DNA of 8,126 bases. It comes from a virus. Its lineage: Duplodnaviria > Heunggongvirae > Uroviricota > Caudoviricetes. Positions 235 to 8,126 of the stretch are shown here, one piece after another. The stretch is taken from IMG/VR virus record IMGVR_UViG_2609460125_000011; one strand, 5' to 3'. The notes under the pieces were generated by a model that did no database searches, was not told the DNA's origin, and worked only from the letters and a program-made list of their open reading frames with translations. Positions within the stretch are counted from its first letter, which is position 1, and each line of letters starts with the position of its first letter. The position numbers were made by a program, and so were the translations under genes.

Positions 235-395
235 TTCAGATATGTCAGCAGCCCAAACAGCAGACTCCCCAGCACGCCTATTGCCGCCCACTGAGACGGG
301 GAAACCCTGTCCAGCAACTGCAGGAACCAGTAGCCCGTTCCCACCGCTGACGTGGTGTATGACACACCTGTTGTGATTTTTTCCATCTGGTCCAT
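216..395 (-). pseudogene. S21-type (class II, pinholin-like) holin, 3'-truncated by IS insertion
   Basis: Translation from ATG at 395 is [54 protein letters not shown], with the dual-start Met1/Met4 motif and two hydrophobic segments typical of S21 holins. A GGAG Shine-Dalgarno sits 7 nt upstream. The frame enters the IS terminal repeat at 234/235 and stops at 216 after IS-derived codons (EVYWQ); the charged C-terminal tail is missing. Confidence 0.75.
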
Positions 396-425
396 ACCCC
401 GTCTCCCGTTATCCGGAAGCTGACA

Positions 426-460
426 ACAATAAAAAAGCCACCAGTTAACTACTGATGGCT
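426..460 (-). terminator. Rho-independent terminator immediately upstream of the holin
   Basis: Minus strand reads AGCCAUCAG-uaguuaa-CUGGUGGCU (9-bp stem, one G-U pair) followed by UUUUUUAUUG. Confidence 0.5.
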
Positions 461-702
461 CTGATAACTCATGCAAGCGTCTCAGACGACCCACTGACAC
501 TACCGGTGAGTTTAACGATACCTTCCATTTGACTGGCTCACTTTTTATGATGATGCCGGTGCATTTATCTCCAGCACCAGACTTTCTATCTCAACGCCAT
601 ACGTTGCATTTTTGGTAATATCCGTCAGCGTCAGTGCATTTAGTCCCACTGCCAGACTGTCTTTTATGGCCTGGAATGCCGGGCCAGTACGATGACGTAG
701 TA

Positions 703-906
703 TCACTCCGGCTCAGTTGCACCACTGACCACCACATCACCTTCTGCTGCAATCGCCTGCATCAGGGTATAAGGGGTTATGGCCACCGGACTACCAAACG
801 GCTGCCAGCCCTCTTTCAGTTTATGTGTCAGCTTTTCCGCAAGATCTGACGGCGGCGCCGCCCTGACAACATCATAGTGTTTAAATGCCATGGTTCTTTC
901 CAACAT
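703..906 (-). CDS. Small conserved prophage protein of unknown function (possibly DUF1737-like)
   Basis: 67-codon ORF (MLERTMAFKHYDVVRAAPPSDLAEKLTHKLKEGWQPFGSPVAITPYTLMQAIAAEGDVVVSGATEPE) with normal GC and an SD-like GGAAAG before the internal Met at 891, which may be the true start. Family assignment is from memory only. Confidence 0.5.
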   Translation of the reverse strand: MLERTMAFKHYDVVRAAPPSDLAEKLTHKLKEGWQPFGSPVAITPYTLMQAIAAEGDVVVSGATEPE

Positions 907-1150
907 CTGAAAAATAATTCTTTAAAATACCTGACATGTAATACAGAAAAAACACAAAACCATACCTTAAATAAAAACCTGATTATCAAGCAGATATGCA
1001 TGGATAAACTACAAGACGAGATATAAACCACCCTGCATTTAAATAAACAATAAACAACATCAGAAAAATAATTCTGCTCTATGGTTTAATTCAAAAATAT
1101 CATTTATACTTTTCAGAACATCACCAGCAAGGCATAAACAAGGAAACTAA

Positions 1151-1486
1151 ATGAAGTGGATTGTGATTGATACAGTTATCCAGCCATCATGCGGAATATC
1201 TTTTTCAGTCATATGGAGTAAAATAAAATTAATAATCTGGTATCAATCGGATGCTTTCTTACCTCCTGAAAGTATATTTACACTGACTCACACAGGCATC
1301 ATGCTCAATAACAAAGTGCTACCTGTAACCATTTACAACGTAGTACCATTCAATAAAACATTCTGGAATTTAATCAAAAACAGCCAGGAATGCCCTACAA
1401 ATACAGATAACGTATTGAATGAATGCTTTAATAACCGTTGCACTCTGCAAATATGTCCTTATGGACTAAAACAACAAAGTCCATAA
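1151..1486 (+). CDS. Hypothetical AT-rich cargo protein with a C-terminal four-cysteine cluster
   Basis: 111-codon ORF with AGGAA Shine-Dalgarno 6 nt before ATG, AT-rich upstream region with a TATACT -10-like hexamer, and low GC relative to neighbours. Six of 13 Ile codons are AUA. C-terminus reads [27 protein letters not shown]. No homolog recognised. Confidence 0.5.
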
Positions 1487-1489
1487 GGA
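1456..1489 (+). other. Perfect 12-bp inverted repeat spanning the stop codon of the 1151-1486 ORF; possible terminator or RNA stability element
   Basis: TCCTTATGGACT (1456-1467), 10-nt loop, AGTCCATAAGGA (1478-1489), followed by GTTTACTC. Confidence 0.4.
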
Positions 1490-1521
1490 GTTTACTCACA
1501 TCTGACAAAATCAATATAAAC

Positions 1522-1541
1522 AGCCCCTCCGGAGAGGGGCT
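1522..1541 (-). terminator. Rho-independent terminator for minus-strand transcripts leaving the cargo region
   Basis: AGCCCCTC-tccg-GAGGGGCT hairpin (8-bp GC-rich stem) followed on the minus strand by GUUUAUAUUGAUUUUG. The plus-strand side lacks a U-tract. Confidence 0.5.
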
Positions 1542-1933
1542 GGAGAGTGGCGCTATGTGCCATTCCATGGTGCCGGGTGCCTCCCGGTGAATTCAGTACC
1601 AGCACCTGAATCCGCGATTATCCCATATACCTACTCGCTGATTGCCCCTCCGCACAGGGGGATTCACCATGCCAGTTTCTTTTAACAAACTCCCCGCAAA
1701 CCAGACAACAGTCAACCGCCTGAATTGTGAAGTATTTAAAAATTTCTCCCGCTAACTGATACCCGGCTAACAGTCTGGCGTTTTCTTTTTCAGCAACGGG
1801 AAAGCAACAACCACCACACCCGCCACCAGCACACCGTCAGCCGGCACTGACATTATCCGGCTGCTGCAATGCCATTAACAAAAACAGTAAGCAATCACTT
1901 TTTACCGTAACAGGTGATAATCCAGATATGTAT

Positions 1934-2287
1934 CTACCCCAGATGAGTAATCCGAAGTTCATCCATACCACAGGTCCTGGCTATTCTGTTGTACTCCTGA
2001 ACAAGAGCAAATAATTCTGAATTAGCAACCATGAACTCATCGCAAACCCTCTGTATAGCATCACTATTCAGAATAATAACGTCTCTTCCCGAAAGACGAT
2101 CAGGAGTACAGAACAAAACTGTCAAACGGCTGAAGGCCTTTGCTCGTGCTGCATTGACTATATCAATACGCTGCCTAAGGATGAAACACCCCGACGCCTC
2201 ATCAATATTCACTCTACCCACACCATATGAATGATAAATACTTAATGCTGAAAAAACCATTAGACCGTATAACAAATACTCAATCAA
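1934..2287 (-). CDS. Hypothetical cargo protein directly downstream of the phage tRNA genes
   Basis: 117-codon ORF with hydrophobic N-terminus (MIEYLLYGLMVFSALSIY...). Six of 11 Arg codons are AGA/AGG and 3 of 11 Ile codons are AUA, matching the adjacent tRNAs. Start is TTG, or ATG at codon 10, with no convincing Shine-Dalgarno, so expression is uncertain. Confidence 0.35.
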   Translation of the reverse strand: MIEYLLYGLMVFSALSIYHSYGVGRVNIDEASGCFILRQRIDIVNAARAKAFSRLTVLFCTPDRLSGRDVIILNSDAIQRVCDEFMVANSELFALVQEYNRIARTCGMDELRITHLG

Positions 2288-2397
2288 TACTTAACAGAAC
2301 TTTTATTTTTGACAAATATATAATATTTTCAACAATATCCTGAGCCAGGTATATTTCAGTATAAGGCTCTGCCGGAAGGAATCTGGAAGAATGAATA

Positions 2398-2474
2398 TGG
2401 CGCGCTGTACTGGATTCGAACCAGTGACCGATTGCTTAGAAGGCAATTGCTCTGTCCGGCTGAGCTAACAACGC
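2398..2474 (-). tRNA. tRNA-Arg (anticodon UCU), phage-type
   Basis: 77-nt cloverleaf on the minus strand: acceptor GCGUUGU/ACAGCGC, D-stem GCUC/GAGC, anticodon stem AUUGC/GCAAU with loop CUUCUAA, T-arm ACUGG-UUCGAAU-CCAGU, discriminator G, encoded CCA. Differs from chromosomal argU. Confidence 0.85.
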
Positions 2475-2575
2475 TGAATACCGATAATGGACCGCCATCG
2501 GGGACCCGCCCCCCGCACCAACAACCCTGTTATCGTGTCGTCTGCTCTTCCTGATAAGCTAATGGCGGTTTGTGA

Positions 2576-2651
2576 TGGTGGCCCTTGCTGGATTTGAACC
2601 AGCGACCTGGCGATTATGAGTCGCTCGCTCTCACCACTGAGCTAAAGGGCC
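2576..2651 (-). tRNA. tRNA-Ile2 (anticodon CAU, lysidine type; ileX/ileZ-like)
   Basis: 76-nt cloverleaf: GGCCCUUUAGCUCAGUGGUGAGAGCGAGCGACUCAUAAUCGCCAGGUCGCUGGUUCAAAUCCAGCAAGGGCCACCA. Close to E. coli ileX in arms and anticodon stem-loop, and not like tRNA-Met. Confidence 0.8.
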
Positions 2652-2690
2652 GGGAGCAGAATAATAACGGTCCGTAATTAATTTCGCAAT

Positions 2691-2715
2691 AAAAAAACCC
2701 GCTCAGCGGCGGGTT
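2691..2715 (-). terminator. tR'-like intrinsic terminator of the short late leader RNA
   Basis: Minus strand reads CCCGCCGCUGAGCGGG followed by a 7-U tract, about 50 nt downstream of the late promoter. Confidence 0.65.
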
Positions 2716-2762
2716 GTAGAAACTCTTCTAACGCCAGGCATAAAACGCCCATCATTATGACG

Positions 2763-2790
2763 AATTTACCACAGATTCCGGAAAAATCAA
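2763..2790 (-). promoter_or_regulatory. Putative late promoter (pR'-like) downstream of Q
   Basis: Minus strand TTGATT (-35), 16-nt spacer, TAAATT (-10), immediately after the Q stop codon and upstream of the tR'-like terminator. Confidence 0.5.
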
Positions 2791-2795
2791 CCTTG

Positions 2796-3617
2796 TTACC
2801 TAGTTACCTTTTTTAACTGCCGCTCAGCCCATGCTTCTTCAATATCAAACCGGGTCACCAGCGCATCATAAAATTTCTTAACTGTTTTTTCCCATGACGC
2901 GCGTGTTATCTGGTTTGTCACCTCGCATATAGCATTAAATGCCTCCGTTGATGGTAGTCTTTCATAGCCACGACCACCACAACGCTGGCAGTCTCTGATA
3001 ACAGGCATACCACGTTTTACCGACTCTTCACGATGAATGGCGACACCACGCCCACGGCAATCCTTACAGGCGGTGGAAACCTCACCCTTTCCGCCACACT
3101 CCGGACAGGCAACTTTTACCACCTCCCTGACTTTTTTCCATTCTTCCCAGTAAGACGGATACACACCTTTCGTACACTTTGCCCATACCGGCGGCTTACC
3201 ATCCGGATACTGGATCTTGTTTGTAAAAACTATGCTTTCAATAAATTTTTCCCCATAGCAACAAGGGCACTGCTTTTTACTCGCTGCGCTGCGGGCATAA
3301 TCCTCAAAAGCGTACGAAGCCATAATGCGCATCACTACCGGTTTTATTTCTGCCGGAAGTTTTCTCAACGCCGCCACACGATCGCACCGACTGAGTGCAT
3401 AATCTGCCAGTAATTCTGTTGCCCGCGCCCTGTCATTCATACTGATGCCCATTTTCCCCAGGAACGCAGAAAAACCCATCTCAGCCCGATTCTGTGTCAT
3501 GCCCTGCGCGGCCATCACATCAGTGATACTCAGCGCATCTTTTGACGTTGAGGCCGATGCATCGGTCAGGCCAGGGGATTTTGGGGAGTAGTATTTCGGT
3601 AAATCTTCCAGTTTCAT
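2796..3617 (-). CDS. Late-gene antiterminator Q-like protein with a DnaJ-like cysteine-rich repeat region
   Basis: 273-codon ORF placed where Q sits in lambdoid phages (after the nin/rusA region, before the late promoter, tR', tRNAs and holin). Contains CPCCYGEK, CPECGGKG, CKDCRGRG and CQRCGGRG motifs. Resembles the QuuQ/YdfT family from memory. Confidence 0.7.
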   Translation of the reverse strand: MKLEDLPKYYSPKSPGLTDASASTSKDALSITDVMAAQGMTQNRAEMGFSAFLGKMGISMNDRARATELLADYALSRCDRVAALRKLPAEIKPVVMRIMASYAFEDYARSAASKKQCPCCYGEKFIESIVFTNKIQYPDGKPPVWAKCTKGVYPSYWEEWKKVREVVKVACPECGGKGEVSTACKDCRGRGVAIHREESVKRGMPVIRDCQRCGGRGYERLPSTEAFNAICEVTNQITRASWEKTVKKFYDALVTRFDIEEAWAERQLKKVTR

Positions 3618-3631
3618 TTTTTGACCTGCTC

Positions 3632-3988
3632 TTAATGCATTATGGGGTAAATCTTCACCCCCAGACGTCCACCAGATACTGGCTGACCACGAACGATATT
3701 GATTTCATCAAACTGCTCATCGTCCATTAACACTCCCGCATGCGTCAGCGCATCCAGCGGTGCTTTCAGGATATTGTCCAGGTCGCGACGACGCTTATCC
3801 GGTGGCTCTGCAATCACCTTTATCGCCAGCCTTCCGGACAGGCTTAATTTCAGCCGCTGCTGGCGAACAATAAGCGCCACAGCCCGGCGATAACGCTTTC
3901 CCTCCTCCGAGATAAAATATGTGCTGCCACGGCGTCGCCAGTAAGTGTTCACCGTCGGCGGGTAAGGTAAAACCAAATCTATGAGCAT
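3632..3988 (-). CDS. rusA: RusA-family Holliday junction resolvase
   Basis: 118-codon ORF with GAGGTGA Shine-Dalgarno. Contains the conserved RusA core PDKRRRDLDNILKAPLDALTHAGVLMDDEQ (compare E. coli RusA [30 protein letters not shown]). Confidence 0.85.
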   Translation of the reverse strand: MLIDLVLPYPPTVNTYWRRRGSTYFISEEGKRYRRAVALIVRQQRLKLSLSGRLAIKVIAEPPDKRRRDLDNILKAPLDALTHAGVLMDDEQFDEINIVRGQPVSGGRLGVKIYPIMH

Positions 3989-4000
3989 CAGTCACCTCTT

Positions 4001-5050
4001 TTACCCAAGCACGCCAGTTGCAAAGGCGTGATCAAGAAAACGAAAAATTAAATCAACCTGAGAACCATGCTTTTCTTCGAACGCCAGAGGATCCGCATGA
4101 AGCTCGTTGTGATGCTCCCGACACAGCGGTAGCGTGAAAATATCGTGAGATTTGGTCCCCATTCCGCCCTGACCATGACCAATCAGGTGATGGGGATCGT
4201 CGGCTGGCTTACCACAACACGCACACGGCTGTGTCTTCACCCAGCGTTTGTATTTCTCGTTAACCCAGCGGCGACGTTTAGGTCGTTTCATGAAAGATTC
4301 CGGAGACTCAGGATCAACGGCAATGCTGACCACCGTCTTTTCCTGTTGTGGGTTCTGTTGCTGGTGGGCGTGAGGCAGCGGCGCAAGATTTTTTGTGCGC
4401 TGTTTCAGTATGCTGGTGGCGGTCTGCTCTCCCGGTACGATGTCGCTTTCACGGTACATTGAGCGGATTTTTTCCGCACGCAACCCCAGCGAACGACGTA
4501 ATACCGCTTCCGGTAGCGCGTCCGCCACCTGATTGCGGACCGCCCACCAGGATAATTCAGCTAGAGATAATTCACGCTCCTGCGTACCGCTTATTGCGTG
4601 ACCGATGACGTCAATCATCCATGCTGACAGGTTTTGATGAGCAAGTTGCTCGAGTGATTCGGATGTCTGGTCACGCAGCTGGTTGTCGCAGTGCCAGCAC
4701 AATACCATTGCGCCGGTACCATAACGGTGAATGACGGTTTCGCTGTGATGATAATCGCCGTGTGGCCACTGGCAGGATTTAATATGGCGCAACAGCCAGT
4801 CAGACAATGCGCCAGCACCACCAGCAGCACGAATCACCCGTGCGTTACTGAAAAACGGCAGCAATGTTTTGTCTTCCACTAGCGGCTGGCGAACGGCAGG
4901 AACGACCCCGGACGGCAGATTACGCATGCTTTTCGGTTCCGGCTCCACCAGTACCCGGGTATTGTGGAATACCGGCATGGATTCACGACCGGGCTTAAGG
5001 ACCACCAGCCCGAGTTCCGGAACCAGAACAGGTCGAAGTAATACCCGCAC
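4001..5050 (-). CDS. ydfU: YdfU-like prophage protein (DUF968-type) with a C-terminal HNH-like Cys/His motif
   Basis: 349-codon ORF with GTG start preceded by GGAGG. Its stop lies in the Shine-Dalgarno region of rusA, suggesting coupling. C-terminal CACCGKPADDPHHLIGHG...CREHHNELH. Same length and position as ydfU in the K-12 Qin prophage as I recall it. Confidence 0.7.
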   Translation of the reverse strand: MRVLLRPVLVPELGLVVLKPGRESMPVFHNTRVLVEPEPKSMRNLPSGVVPAVRQPLVEDKTLLPFFSNARVIRAAGGAGALSDWLLRHIKSCQWPHGDYHHSETVIHRYGTGAMVLCWHCDNQLRDQTSESLEQLAHQNLSAWMIDVIGHAISGTQERELSLAELSWWAVRNQVADALPEAVLRRSLGLRAEKIRSMYRESDIVPGEQTATSILKQRTKNLAPLPHAHQQQNPQQEKTVVSIAVDPESPESFMKRPKRRRWVNEKYKRWVKTQPCACCGKPADDPHHLIGHGQGGMGTKSHDIFTLPLCREHHNELHADPLAFEEKHGSQVDLIFRFLDHAFATGVLG

Positions 5051-5129
5051 GTTACCTCCAGATCCGTTGCTGGAATGTGCGGGACGGACGCGGTGGCTGT
5101 TCGGAGTAAGGGAGCCTGACGGAGATTAT

Positions 5130-5330
5130 CTAGTGACGGTAGTCGAGGCTAAGGGCTTTTTTAACCTCGCATCCGCGCCTGCGGTAACACTGAATAAGCC
5201 ATTCGGCCTGTTCTTCAGTGCATGAGGGATGCTGGTACCAGTCTGACTTAAATGCGTGAGAATACCGCTCGTGCGTGTGGGCAAGAACGGTCGAATTATC
5301 ATGATTGTAATATTTTGCGTTGCGTGCCAT
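5130..5330 (-). CDS. Hypothetical small protein
   Basis: 66-codon ORF (MARNAKYYNHDNSTVLAHTHERYSHAFKSDWYQHPSCTEEQAEWLIQCYRRRGCEVKKALSLDYRH) with GGAG Shine-Dalgarno 7 nt upstream of ATG. Confidence 0.5.
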   Translation of the reverse strand: MARNAKYYNHDNSTVLAHTHERYSHAFKSDWYQHPSCTEEQAEWLIQCYRRRGCEVKKALSLDYRH

Positions 5331-5396
5331 CGGTTTTCTCCGGTGGCACGGTGTTACTCAGCGGGAGTTCAGCCCCGCGCAAGATTGTAGATGAGT

Positions 5397-5648
5397 TTAT
5401 TCTTCTGAAAAAGCAGAAAAGCCAGCTTTTATTCCGATCTCTTTCAATGCCTGTAATGAAGTGACAAACTCACCGTCGCGCAAGATAAATCCGTCCGTCA
5501 CTCGGGCATCCACAAAATTAATTAACGCAGCCCCATTTTTTTGCAAACACACAATGCGGTAATGACTAACAATATTTCCATTTTCAACGCACACAGCATA
5601 GAGGCCATCTTCACAAAAAATTTTACGCAGTTCTTCGATGTTCATCAT
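5397..5648 (-). CDS. rem: Rem-like small prophage protein
   Basis: 83-codon ORF with GGAAGGA Shine-Dalgarno, a promoter-like TTGAAG-18-TAGAAT upstream, and a position between ydfU and hokD as in Qin. Assigned by length and synteny, not sequence. Confidence 0.55.
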   Translation of the reverse strand: MMNIEELRKIFCEDGLYAVCVENGNIVSHYRIVCLQKNGAALINFVDARVTDGFILRDGEFVTSLQALKEIGIKAGFSAFSEE

Positions 5649-5765
5649 CAGAATCCTTCCAGATAAGTAGCACTCCCCTGTTCGGGGTCCATCCCTTTTA
5701 TCCCTGCGCGCTACTTAAGTATTTTTGATTCTATTCCGGCACCATCCAGAACTTCAAATGCGTTG

Positions 5766-5798
5766 AAAATAAAAACAAAAACCCGCCGAAGCGGGTTT
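5766..5798 (-). terminator. Rho-independent terminator of the relB-relE-hokD operon
   Basis: Minus strand ACCCGC-uucg-GCGGGU hairpin followed by UUUUGUUUUUAUUUU. Confidence 0.6.
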
Positions 5799-5865
5799 AG
5801 TGCGGGTGCGTTGAGGATGCCTGCCACATCAGAGGTGGCGAGGGATTTCTCACTCGCCGGGTCTC

Positions 5866-6021
5866 TTACTCCTCAGGTTCGTAAGCTGTGAAGACAGCGA
5901 CCTCCGTCTGGCCGGTTCGGATTCGTACCTCGCAGAGGTCTTTCCTCGTTACCAGTGCCGTCACTATGACGGTTAAACAGATGACGATCAGGGCGATTAA
6001 CATCGCCTTTTGCTGCTTCAT
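5866..6021 (-). CDS. hokD: Hok-family type I toxin (HokD/RelF)
   Basis: 51-codon ORF below the ORF-track length cutoff: MKQQKAMLIALIVICLTVIVTALVTRKDLCEVRIRTGQTEVAVFTAYEPEE. Matches E. coli HokD as I recall it and has the Hok-family single transmembrane helix. Confidence 0.85.
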   Translation of the reverse strand: MKQQKAMLIALIVICLTVIVTALVTRKDLCEVRIRTGQTEVAVFTAYEPEE

Positions 6022-6092
6022 AGCCTGCTTCTCCTGTCAACGCAAAGCAGAAGTGTCACCTTCGGTGCGAAACAGAGATGTCATGCTTTGGT

Positions 6093-6380
6093 TCAGAGAA
6101 TGCGTTTGACCGCCTCGCTATATACTTCCGAGCGTTCTCTTTTCCCAACAGAAATCACGAAAACGACAACTTTCTCGTCTATAACCTGGTATACAAGGCG
6201 ATAGCCTGAAGACCGGAGCTTAATCTTGTAACAATCAGGCATACCACGGAGCTTGTTTGCTTCAATCCGGGGTGACTCAAGTACTTCAACCAGCTTCTTT
6301 TTCAACTGTTCACGTACCGTCGAGCCCAGCTTTCGCCATTCCTTTAGTGCCCGCTCGTCAAAATCCAGAAAATACGCCAT
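6093..6380 (-). CDS. relE: RelE mRNA interferase toxin (type II)
   Basis: 95-aa product MAYFLDFDERALKEWRKLGSTV...VISVGKRERSEVYSEAVKRIL is essentially E. coli RelE. Its ATG overlaps the relB stop (ATGA). Confidence 0.95.
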   Translation of the reverse strand: MAYFLDFDERALKEWRKLGSTVREQLKKKLVEVLESPRIEANKLRGMPDCYKIKLRSSGYRLVYQVIDEKVVVFVISVGKRERSEVYSEAVKRIL

Positions 6381-6619
6381 CAGAGTTCATCCAGCGTCAC
6401 ACGTACTGGCTTAGGATTACGAAGCCGTTCTTTCACTATCTCCACAAGTTCAGCATCTTCATCACTCAGGAGTGTCTGTTTGAACGGCAAGCGTTCATTG
6501 TCAGCGATATACTCGAGCATGAGACGAAGCGCTTCAGAAGGAGTTACACCCATTTTTTCAAGCGCGGCGTAAGAACGCGCTTTAAGTTCATCGTCAATAC
6601 GCAGGTTAATGCTACCCAT
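6380..6619 (-). CDS. relB: RelB antitoxin (type II)
   Basis: 79-aa product MGSINLRIDDELKARSYAALEKMGVTPSEALRLMLEYIADNERLPFKQTLLSDEDAELVEIVKERLRNPKPVRVTLDEL is essentially E. coli RelB. Confidence 0.95.
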   Translation of the reverse strand: MGSINLRIDDELKARSYAALEKMGVTPSEALRLMLEYIADNERLPFKQTLLSDEDAELVEIVKERLRNPKPVRVTLDEL

Positions 6620-6700
6620 GTCTTACACCTCTTGTAATTACAAATGTCATTACAAGTATCGCACTACAACATGCTTAGGGCAAGTCACGAAGGAAGTCAG
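6620..6700 (-). promoter_or_regulatory. relBE promoter/operator region
   Basis: Immediately upstream of relB: perfect palindrome TTGTAATTACAA at 6632-6643 and a second TGTCATTACAAG repeat (the hexad repeats bound by RelB/RelE), an AGAGGTG Shine-Dalgarno, and candidate TTGCCC-17-GATACT promoter hexamers. Confidence 0.55.
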
Positions 6701-6946
6701 AAAGTAGTCGTAAGAACGGTGATCACTGTCCGCTTTGTGCCAGGAGCAGCCATTGCTAAGTCCATCCTGTATTGTGCAGGTCAGCTCTTTTTTAAAGAGT
6801 CCGGCCATCATCTTACTGGTACAGACACCATATACTTTGTGACGGTCAGGCTACATATGCACAACTCAACTTATTCATCTATTTTTTGCTTTAGCATGTC
6901 AGTGAGGTGTACTGGCAATAGCGGACACTACCATTTGTTCTTTTTT

Positions 6947-7734
6947 TAAGCAGCCATCTGATGATATTTTTCCCTGAAGGCTGCCGGGGAGATATTCCCC
7001 AGACGAGAGTGACGACGCTGACGATTGTAGAAAATCTCAATGTATTCCCGTATTACTGAGATGGCTTCATCCCGGTTATTAAACGATAGTGGCTCGGGCT
7101 CTCATTTTCAGCGTTCCCCAGAAGCTTTCCATCGGAGCGTTGTCGTAACAGTTACCTTTACGCGACATTGATGTTTCAGACCAGACTGCTCCTGTATGAC
7201 CCGGTAATCGTATGCGCAGTACTGTGAACCTCGATCAGAGTGGTGGATTAGCCCGGCAGGTGGGCGCTGGCTCCTGAGCGCCATAAACAGGGCTTTACCT
7301 GTCAGCTCTTTTGTCATGCGCTCTCCCATGGCGTAGCCGACAATTTCGCACGTATAAACATCTTTGATGCCAGCAACATACGTCAGGTCCGCCACCCAGA
7401 CCTGATTTGGTGCTGTAGGAGCGAACGTCTGGTTCAGCAGATTTGGCGCAACTGGCAGATTGTGGTTCGGGTTCGTAGTCGCTCTGAACTTGCGTTTCTG
7501 CTTACAGCGTAGCCTCAGCTCCTTACGAAGACGTGCCAGTCGGTCACGACCAACGATGATGCCATTCTCTGCCAGCTCCGTCTGGAGCCGCCGGGTTCCA
7601 TATGTTTCGCGAGTGCGGATATGTGCCACCTTAATCTCCGGTTTTAGCCGCTCATCACTTTGTTTTCTGTCTGAGGGTTCATGCTGTACCCAGTTGTAAT
7701 AACCGCTCCTGGATACACCAAATACCTGACACAT
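6947..7734 (-). pseudogene. IS3-family transposase OrfB (DDE catalytic domain), frameshifted and internally deleted
   Basis: MCQVFGVSRSGYYNWV...NQVWVADLTYV-AGIKDVYTCEIVGYAMGERMT...LIHHSDRGSQYCAYDY, then loses frame. The conserved C-terminus MSRKGNCYDNAPMESFWGTLK...FREKYHQMAA is present out of frame with single-base losses in A and T runs. The segment after DLTYV that normally carries the conserved GWLYL motif is absent. Confidence 0.75.
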
Positions 7735-7813
7735 CGCTTCAATGGGAAATTGTTGTCGCCATTGTTCGATTAACGCGTATTTTTCAGCGACTCCTGTGCA
7801 AAATACGCTGTTG

Positions 7814-7820
7814 CTTTTTT
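7814..7820 (-). other. A6G slippery heptamer (programmed -1 frameshift site) of the IS3-family transposase
   Basis: Minus strand AAAAAAG inside ...GATATATTAAAAAAGCAA..., at the orfA/orfB overlap as in IS3-family elements. Confidence 0.5.
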
Positions 7821-7848
7821 AATATATCTCGCTCAAGGCGAGCTTCAT

Positions 7849-8037
7849 TTAACGCCTTACGCAGTTGCAGAATTTCAGATTCCAGTTCAGCCACCGTGCG
7901 GTAACCAGGAGTCCTGAGCTCCCTTCAGGCGGCGGTAACCCATAAGCGCCTTCACTGATCGAAAGTTGATTTTCAAGAACCGTTCTGACAGCTTCGGCTT
8001 TGAACTCTTTAGAGTAACGTTGGGTTTTTCTGCTCAT
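7849..8037 (-). pseudogene. IS3-family transposase OrfA (helix-turn-helix N-terminus), disrupted
   Basis: MSRKTQRYSKEFKAEAVRTVLENQLSISEGA... starts at 8037 with a Shine-Dalgarno upstream. The frame is lost before the conserved TVAELESEILQLRKALNEARLERDILKK segment, which is present only in another frame, implying an internal indel. Confidence 0.75.
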
Positions 8038-8126
8038 TATTAGCTCCTTCTGATGCCATTCTATTTCAGGAAGGAGTGTCCGTTAAACTCAGGCTACCTC
8101 ATTTCCTTCGTTTATTTGCATGAATA

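Follow-up and report, generated by a model that had tools for sequence, protein, structure and literature searches.

Introduction

[quoted passage not shown] IraL is a paralogue of IraM encoded on the potB island, and its gene was formerly called ycgW (Hryckowian et al., 2014); a later paper gives the locus as c1429. [quoted passage not shown] The same study reported 58.9% identity between IraL and IraM and described RssC as an IraL/IraM-like protein. Later work found IraL raised in a CFT073 fur mutant and iraL (c1429) mRNA increased by 1.6 log2 upon a shift to 37 °C.

The K-12 paralogue, IraM (b1160), has 107 residues and is encoded next to e14. Unlike IraL, it is induced via PhoPQ when cells are starved of Mg2+ and makes contact with both domains of RssB. 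A 2023 JBC paper (PMC10844676) lists the residues of IraM that form this interface. The crystallized IraM lacked residues 79–107, a tail that the authors described as proteolytically unstable, less conserved, and predicted to be flexible. RssC of Salmonella and the IraM-like proteins of Citrobacter, Klebsiella, Enterobacter, and Pantoea belong to the same family and have a CX10CX5CX4C-type tail, but they are only 20–50% identical to IraL. The sole other solved fold of the IraM kind is that of PmrD (PDB 4hn7, 2jso, and 2rqx), another small connector protein that targets a response regulator, in its case PmrA rather than RssB.

The DNA analyzed here (the window) is an 8,126-nucleotide stretch of the Caudoviricetes record IMGVR_UViG_2609460125_000011. 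Its open reading frame (ORF) at 1151–1486 is almost certainly iraL, carried as a horizontally acquired cargo gene by a lambdoid prophage of the Qin/potB type. The gene is already known; its product, partner, and transcription start were published with it in 2014. The following sections describe how the window copy compares with CFT073 iraL and K-12 iraM, and what can be said of its promoter, 3′ hairpin, and cysteine-rich tail.

Identity of the gene

The coding sequence and its ribosome-binding site lie on the plus strand.

1140–1144, plus strand: Shine-Dalgarno sequence AAGGA, 6 nt upstream of the ATG, read from the sequence
1151–1486, plus strand: iraL coding sequence, ATG start, 111 residues plus stop; RssB anti-adaptor of the IraM/IraL/RssC family

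The encoded protein is identical at 111 of 111 residues to CFT073 WP_000871291.1, a potB prophage protein that RefSeq labels IraM. It scores 162 bits against the NCBIfam IraM model NF007393 (cutoff, 121), with residues 1–110 aligned to model positions 1–113 of 114; it thus exceeds the curated cutoff over its full length and falls within the IraM/IraL/RssC family. At the DNA level, Hryckowian et al. (2014; PMC4045071) assigned iraL alleles by at least 95% nucleotide identity over the whole coding region, and the window coding sequence is identical to CFT073 iraL in alignment, versus only ~70% nucleotide identity to K-12 iraM. Against K-12 IraM, the protein is identical at 66 of 107 positions (62%) without gaps, which is consistent with the published value for IraL and IraM. 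A Pfam scan of the ORF returned no family at E ≤ 0.1; PF11183 is precomputed for its relatives, and the identification rests on NCBIfam, RefSeq annotation, and the literature.

The gene is also widespread. Over 801 nt, the region is ~99.5% identical to DNA of E. coli 042, JJ1886, and many other genomes, and RefSeq places the label “anti-adapter protein IraM” on it in approximately 1,400 of 5,426 complete E. coli genomes. The whole region is present in four records of the phage collection. Given the identity to the CFT073 protein, the match to the published 5′ end, and the shared gene order (both described below), the ORF is therefore iraL. Nothing contradicts this identification, and the caveats concern the function of the window copy. 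The earlier note, made from the sequence alone, had not recognized the protein and had named a clear match to a known family as the outcome that would count against it; the identity to characterized IraL and the NF007393 score provide that match.

In composition, the earlier description was accurate. The gene is AT-rich, with a GC content of 34.5% versus 0.478 for the whole window and 0.49–0.54 for Q, rusA, DUF968, and DUF1737, and 6 of its 13 Ile codons are AUA. It has its own Shine-Dalgarno sequence and is the sole plus-strand gene between Q and the holin gene, opposing the late operon. The cysteine spacing, given earlier as CX12CX4CX5C, needs correction: the four C-terminal cysteines are arranged as C81-X10-C92-X4-C97-X4-C102 (CX10CX4CX4C), and a fifth cysteine is C14.

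The database names raise the question of whether the ORF is a functional orthologue of K-12 iraM, namely an anti-adaptor controlled by PhoP/PhoQ and induced by magnesium starvation. RefSeq and NCBIfam both use the name IraM, the fold is common to both proteins, and the two are 62% identical. Yet DNA similarity to the K-12 locus is limited to the coding region (window 1149–1470), so the promoter and regulatory DNA are unrelated, and the genomic context also differs. Moreover, the identical CFT073 protein works in unstressed logarithmic phase and binds RssB in a manner unlike IraM. A PhoP-regulated orthologue is thus very unlikely, and this reading was rejected on the grounds of promoter DNA, context, and the behavior of CFT073 IraL. 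K-12 IraM is better viewed as a relative that shares the NF007393 family, the β-barrel plus helix fold, and the four tail cysteines, but lacks the C-terminal QQSP extension and the 12-bp hairpin found in iraL.

Prophage setting

The window covers the late-regulatory region of a lambdoid prophage (Qin/potB type), reading on the minus strand. It carries relB/relE-type and hokD toxin-antitoxin genes, DUF968, rusA, and the Q antiterminator gene (PF03589), followed beyond Q by a promoter/terminator module, tRNA-Met/Ile(CAU), tRNA-Arg(UCU), small ORFs, a DUF1737 remnant, and a P21-type holin gene. Over positions 236–5347, the window is collinear with, and ~98% identical to, the prophages found in E. 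coli 042, CFT073, and JJ1886. A survey for the same ORF at the Q-to-holin junction, which had been proposed as a check, found one gene order in the window, the CFT073 potB prophage, and 042: hokD, DUF968, rusA, Q, tRNAs, DUF3927, iraL (reverse), DUF1737, and holin.

The prophage is degraded. Unlike its CFT073 counterpart, it is cut by IS600, which interrupts the P21-type holin gene at 235/236. The resulting IS600-holin junction is absent from all 5,426 complete E. coli genomes searched, and an exact search of species-representative genomes also found none; the prophage may therefore come from a Shigella-like host. Two inverted IS600 copies (1–235 and ~6903–8100) bracket 236–6902; the one on the right is marked by small internal deletions, and its transposase frames are broken. 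The small DUF3927 ORF of 042 and CFT073 (window 1768–1899, minus strand) has a stop at codon 8, where CEW has become C-stop-W.

Several other minus-strand features accompany these genes. Just downstream of Q, 2696–2790 contains a promoter-like TTGATT-N16-TAAATT, approximately 40 nt, and a strong terminator-like site at 2715–2696 (AACCCGCCGCTGAGCGGGTT plus a T-run). This module looks like a pR′-tR′ that Q would override, and a second promoter-like site lies between it and the tRNA genes. A 117-residue ORF at 1934–2287 (41% GC) matches phrog_2873 at 2e-69 and has no annotated coding sequence in 042 or CFT073 RefSeq entries. The 67-residue DUF1737 ORF at 703–906 is the N-terminal remnant of a large DUF1737-SASA-DUF6645 gene for a NanS-p-like esterase; the full gene occupies the equivalent position in Stx and related phages (loci L004, L005, L006, and L009). 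At 5866–6619, hokD (Hok/Gef family) adjoins a pair of the RelB/RelE type (ParE_toxin), an arrangement also seen in the Qin prophage of K-12. An 83-residue ORF lies within 5348–5776, a segment not shared with the 042, CFT073, and JJ1886 prophages.

The prophage genes for tRNA-Arg(UCU) and a CAU-anticodon tRNA lie at 2398–2474 and 2576–2651 (minus strand), 0.9–1.1 kb from iraL. RefSeq labels the latter tRNA-Ile, a reader of AUA. There are no AGA or AGG codons in iraL. It is possible that the prophage tRNAs supply a rare-codon decoder for AT-rich cargo such as iraL.

The iraL cassette and its STnc100 neighbor

The gene lies in a discrete block that meets a small RNA gene at its right edge.

893–1521 (approximate), plus strand: iraL cassette (moron), AT-rich, with promoter, gene, and 3′ hairpin; absent from the related phage PhiR5_1
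1512–1701, minus strand: STnc100-family small RNA gene (Rfam RF02076; 124.2 bits versus a gathering threshold of 47; model positions 1–206 of 206)
1521–1542, minus strand: intrinsic terminator of STnc100, at the right edge of the iraL cassette; a G+C-rich 9-bp hairpin followed by a T-run

Phage PhiR5_1 is homologous to the window at 734–892 and 1522–1833 but not between these segments, which places the cassette at ~893–1521. The block has a GC content of 0.28–0.35 versus ~0.5 in its flanks and sits between the Q/tRNA region and the lysis genes. With its own promoter, ORF, and 3′ stem-loop, its distinct composition, and its presence or absence between phages, it has the properties of a prophage moron, and the earlier description of self-contained cargo opposing the late operon is supported. 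Other lambdoid Q-to-lysis morons, such as stx, are likewise independently transcribed, compositionally distinct, and present or absent at the same site. However, stx is co-oriented with the late operon, whereas iraL opposes it.

The convergent neighbor scores above the Rfam gathering threshold over the full STnc100 model. Its terminator hairpin was found by the terminator scan, coincides with the 3′ end of the Rfam structure, has a predicted energy of -19.3 kcal/mol, and is identical in all four iraL-like contexts compared. The two genes are arranged tail-to-tail, with 22 nt from the end of the 12-bp stem (1489) to the 3′ end of the small RNA (1512); CFT073 iraL has both the 3′ hairpin and the adjoining STnc100 gene in common with the window copy. 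The location of STnc100 downstream of the stx2 operon and its relation to PasD small RNAs have been described previously. As a weaker companion idea, the fixed pairing of iraL-like genes with STnc100, including beside stx2, may constitute a regulatory unit. RefSeq also lists a partial “hypothetical protein” (plus strand, ~1557–1682) that overlaps the STnc100 gene and is probably spurious.

IraL/IraM-like paralogues also occur directly 3′ of the Shiga toxin 2 B-subunit gene, in convergent orientation, at L004:4001–4324 (an O157:H7 Stx2c prophage) and L006–L008:3001–3336. These genes (encoding, for example, WP_001303568.1 of O157:H7 strain 7.1_Anguil, and the P0005 type) resemble iraL in position and orientation: they have the Q/tRNA/cargo region on one side and the genes for lysis and a nanS-p-like esterase on the other, and the STnc100 terminator hairpin is common to both. 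They differ in sequence, with 75–76% protein identity to IraL and ~78% nucleotide identity for the O157 type, and the 12-bp hairpin is absent or eroded. No discussion of the linkage between stx2 and IraL-like genes was found in the retrieved literature.

The iraL promoter

1082–1118, plus strand: σ70 promoter region and transcription start of iraL (start at 1118; probable −10 element TATACT at 1105–1110)

The earlier note had described a promoter-like upstream region, which can now be anchored to a mapped transcript. The published 5′-RACE sequence of CFT073 iraL (ACATCACCAGCAAGGCATAAACAAGGAAACCA) corresponds to window 1118–1149 with 1 mismatch in 32 nt. The upstream DNA is at least 96% identical to that of CFT073, with the mapped start, and is near-identical except for a 1-bp deletion. 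The −10 and −35 hexamers are putative assignments read from the sequence. In the probable −35 element (1086–1091), CFT073 has TTTACA whereas the window has TTTA-A, having lost the C of GGTTTACATTC relative to both CFT073 and 042. Two further differences from CFT073 are a G-to-A change one base upstream of the start site and a C-to-T change in the leader. A consensus promoter scan of the window did not pick up the mapped iraL promoter.

The deletion is found elsewhere. One JJ1886 copy has exactly the same −35 deletion, and the 70-nt promoter of the window is matched exactly in 163 of 1,438 iraL-bearing E. coli records; the variant therefore persists. Hryckowian et al. (2014; PMC4045071) reported a mutation in the predicted −35 element of JJ1886 iraL2 and stated that they did not know whether that copy is expressed. 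Judging from the one JJ1886 copy, the window variant is probably their iraL2 variant. Other iraL alleles carry C-to-T or T-to-A changes there, which makes the site polymorphic.

These findings bear on the possibility that the window copy is a mere passenger, silent or in decay: its frame would be intact but its promoter damaged, the prophage around it crippled, and RpoS currently unaffected by it. The deletion in the probable −35 element, the uncertain expression of JJ1886 iraL2, the IS600-truncated holin gene between degenerate inverted IS600 copies, and the nonsense codon in the neighboring DUF3927 gene are all in keeping with decay. Against this, the coding sequence is fully intact and identical to the active allele, the exact promoter variant recurs in other iraL-bearing records, and the −10 element, the start site, and the Shine-Dalgarno sequence are all intact. 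A silent passenger is thus the less favored reading, but one that deserves to be taken seriously. That the window copy of iraL is expressed can only be presumed, given the 1-bp deletion.

The hairpin over the stop codon

1456–1489: allele-specific inverted repeat spanning the final codons and stop of iraL; 12 bp, perfect, 10-nt loop

The perfect inverted repeat reported in the earlier note is present and far from a chance event. Its arms, TCCTTATGGACT (1456–1467) and AGTCCATAAGGA (1478–1489), enclose the TAA stop (1484–1486) in the right arm. The window holds no second repeat of this type, and 200 mononucleotide shuffles gave a mean of 0.015 per window. The stem is predicted to fold at -16.7 kcal/mol on the plus strand and -17.1 kcal/mol on the minus strand. 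Five of the 12 pairs are G-C, and the 3′ tail is GUUUACUC on the plus strand and CAUAUUUG on the minus strand. With its 10-nt loop and no U-tract, the hairpin does not have the form of a canonical intrinsic terminator and was not called by the terminator scan, which found no canonical U-tract terminator after iraL on the plus strand. By eye, the alignment suggests that K-12 iraM has a terminator-like hairpin of its own ~60 nt beyond its stop.

The earlier note had proposed that the repeat could be a protein-binding or RNA-processing site. As a selected element, it could also be an antisense-blocking site. A role of this kind is suggested by its perfection and unusual length, well beyond chance, by its ability to fold on either strand, and by its identity in 785 E. 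coli records. Comparison with relatives argues the other way. The hairpin is absent from K-12 iraM, where the stop lies four codons earlier, and from the stx2c-linked type. In two related 111-residue lineages, only stem remnants of -7.0 and -4.8 kcal/mol are left, in which the mismatches stand uncompensated. For iraL alleles, 785 records share one sequence across 1441–1512 and 590 differ at one to three positions; the sampled variants are a synonymous A-to-G change that gives a G·U pair and a pair-breaking G-to-A change (S110N). That 785 records agree follows from the at least 95% identity of the whole allele, and the invariant CPYG codons constrain the sequence of the left arm. With loss or erosion in relatives and no double compensatory change, the hairpin does not behave as a selected structured RNA.

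Since the hairpin is not conserved outside the iraL allele, a special function is unsupported. The protein-binding or RNA-processing proposal is not upheld, a selected element is improbable, and a conserved structured element was rejected for the same loss, erosion, and lack of covariation. We read the hairpin instead as an mRNA 3′-end stem of recent origin, tied to the four-codon QQSP extension, and it presumably acts only as such a 3′-end or terminator-like stem.

Fold and RssB-binding surface

Structure prediction followed by a structural search, the check suggested earlier, places IraL with IraM. The IraL sequence matches PDB 8twd (IraM residues 1–78 with RssB) at E=9e-32. An AF2 model built from an alignment of 45 representatives, collected by an exhaustive profile HMM search, has a pLDDT of 88.1 and a pTM of 0.77; an alignment of 13 close homologues alone gave a pLDDT of 47.8. 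The best PDB match of the model is IraM (8twd_A; TM 0.90, rmsd 1.3 Å), followed by three PmrD structures, as expected for the fold of the IraM/IraL/RssC family. PmrD aligns at TM 0.70–0.74 (target-normalized) but with only 14–21% identity, and nothing in it corresponds to the four-cysteine tail, with the alignment ending by approximately residue 81.

The interface residues of IraM are unevenly kept. All five residues of cluster I, which contacts the RssB N-terminal domain (IraM I4, I6, W22, K26, and I42), are identical in IraL, whereas T13S, L75I, H63N, and I64V set IraL apart in clusters II and III, the contacts for the C-terminal domain and the linker. Judged by these substitutions, a retained cluster I with altered clusters II and III would fit the N-terminal-domain-only binding of RssB by IraL.

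A secreted or periplasmic, disulfide-bonded small protein was also considered, five cysteines and a small size being compatible with it. The earlier note had proposed a check for a signal peptide. Residues 2–33 form β-strands of the barrel core, the N-terminus being the first strand of the IraM barrel and not a likely signal peptide, and the demonstrated partner, RssB, is cytoplasmic. The secreted reading was rejected on these points and retains a negligible probability.

For the identical CFT073 protein, published experiments have established its activity, its binding to RssB, and where transcription of its gene starts. IraL is thus a small cytoplasmic protein with the PmrD-like β-barrel fold of IraM that binds the response-regulator-type adaptor RssB. 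Bound RssB cannot pass RpoS (σS) to the ClpXP protease, and RpoS escapes degradation and is stabilized, in CFT073 already during exponential growth. In the window, the gene would be transcribed from its own σ70 promoter, with the start at 1118, opposite to the Q-dependent late operon. It ends in the 12-bp stem-loop, and 22 nt separate this from the 3′ end of the convergent STnc100 gene.

The cysteine tail

1391–1471, plus strand: part of the coding sequence of the C-terminal tail, with C81, C92, C97, C102, and the ICPYG motif

The four tail cysteines and the ICPYG motif are invariant among 14 close relatives. Across 45 family representatives, down to ~20% identity, only W72, C81, and C97 are invariant, and C92, C102, and P103 are conserved at 98%; those identified by name are from Citrobacter, Salmonella, Enterobacter, Klebsiella, and Pantoea. 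All four cysteines are in register in 43 of the 45, and a 44th has its second Cys shifted by two residues. The family consensus of the tail is C-P-x9-C-x5-C-x4-C-P-Y-G, with CX10CX5CX4C as the commonest spacing. Elsewhere, conservation of the tail is poor (mean top-residue frequency of 0.31 versus 0.45 in the core), its pLDDT is 69–78 in the AF2 model, and there is no solved counterpart among the PDB matches.

The earlier note had suggested that these cysteines bind metal or form disulfides. The idea deserves attention because the tail cysteines are among the most conserved positions of the family. The arrangement lacks the CXXC knuckles of common zinc ribbons. The IraM/RssB literature examined does not discuss the tail cysteines, and a search combining IraM or RssC with cysteine or zinc found nothing relevant. 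A metal or redox role is a plausible hypothesis. More specifically, and tentatively, the tail (79–107) may be a conserved Cys4 metal-binding or redox-sensing module that controls the stability or activity of IraL/IraM-type anti-adaptors.

Implications

For annotation, the RefSeq name IraM hides a differently regulated paralogue, IraL. The window copy also carries a −35 variant whose expression the original authors left undecided. The uncharacterized IraL-like paralogues that directly adjoin stx2 are a modest, testable side observation. No positions of the family are better conserved than the four tail cysteines, yet they are missing from its only crystal structure; if the Cys4 proposal is true, the tail would couple RpoS stabilization to metal or redox status. 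A strain with iraL may hold more RpoS during growth, with effects on stress resistance and virulence.
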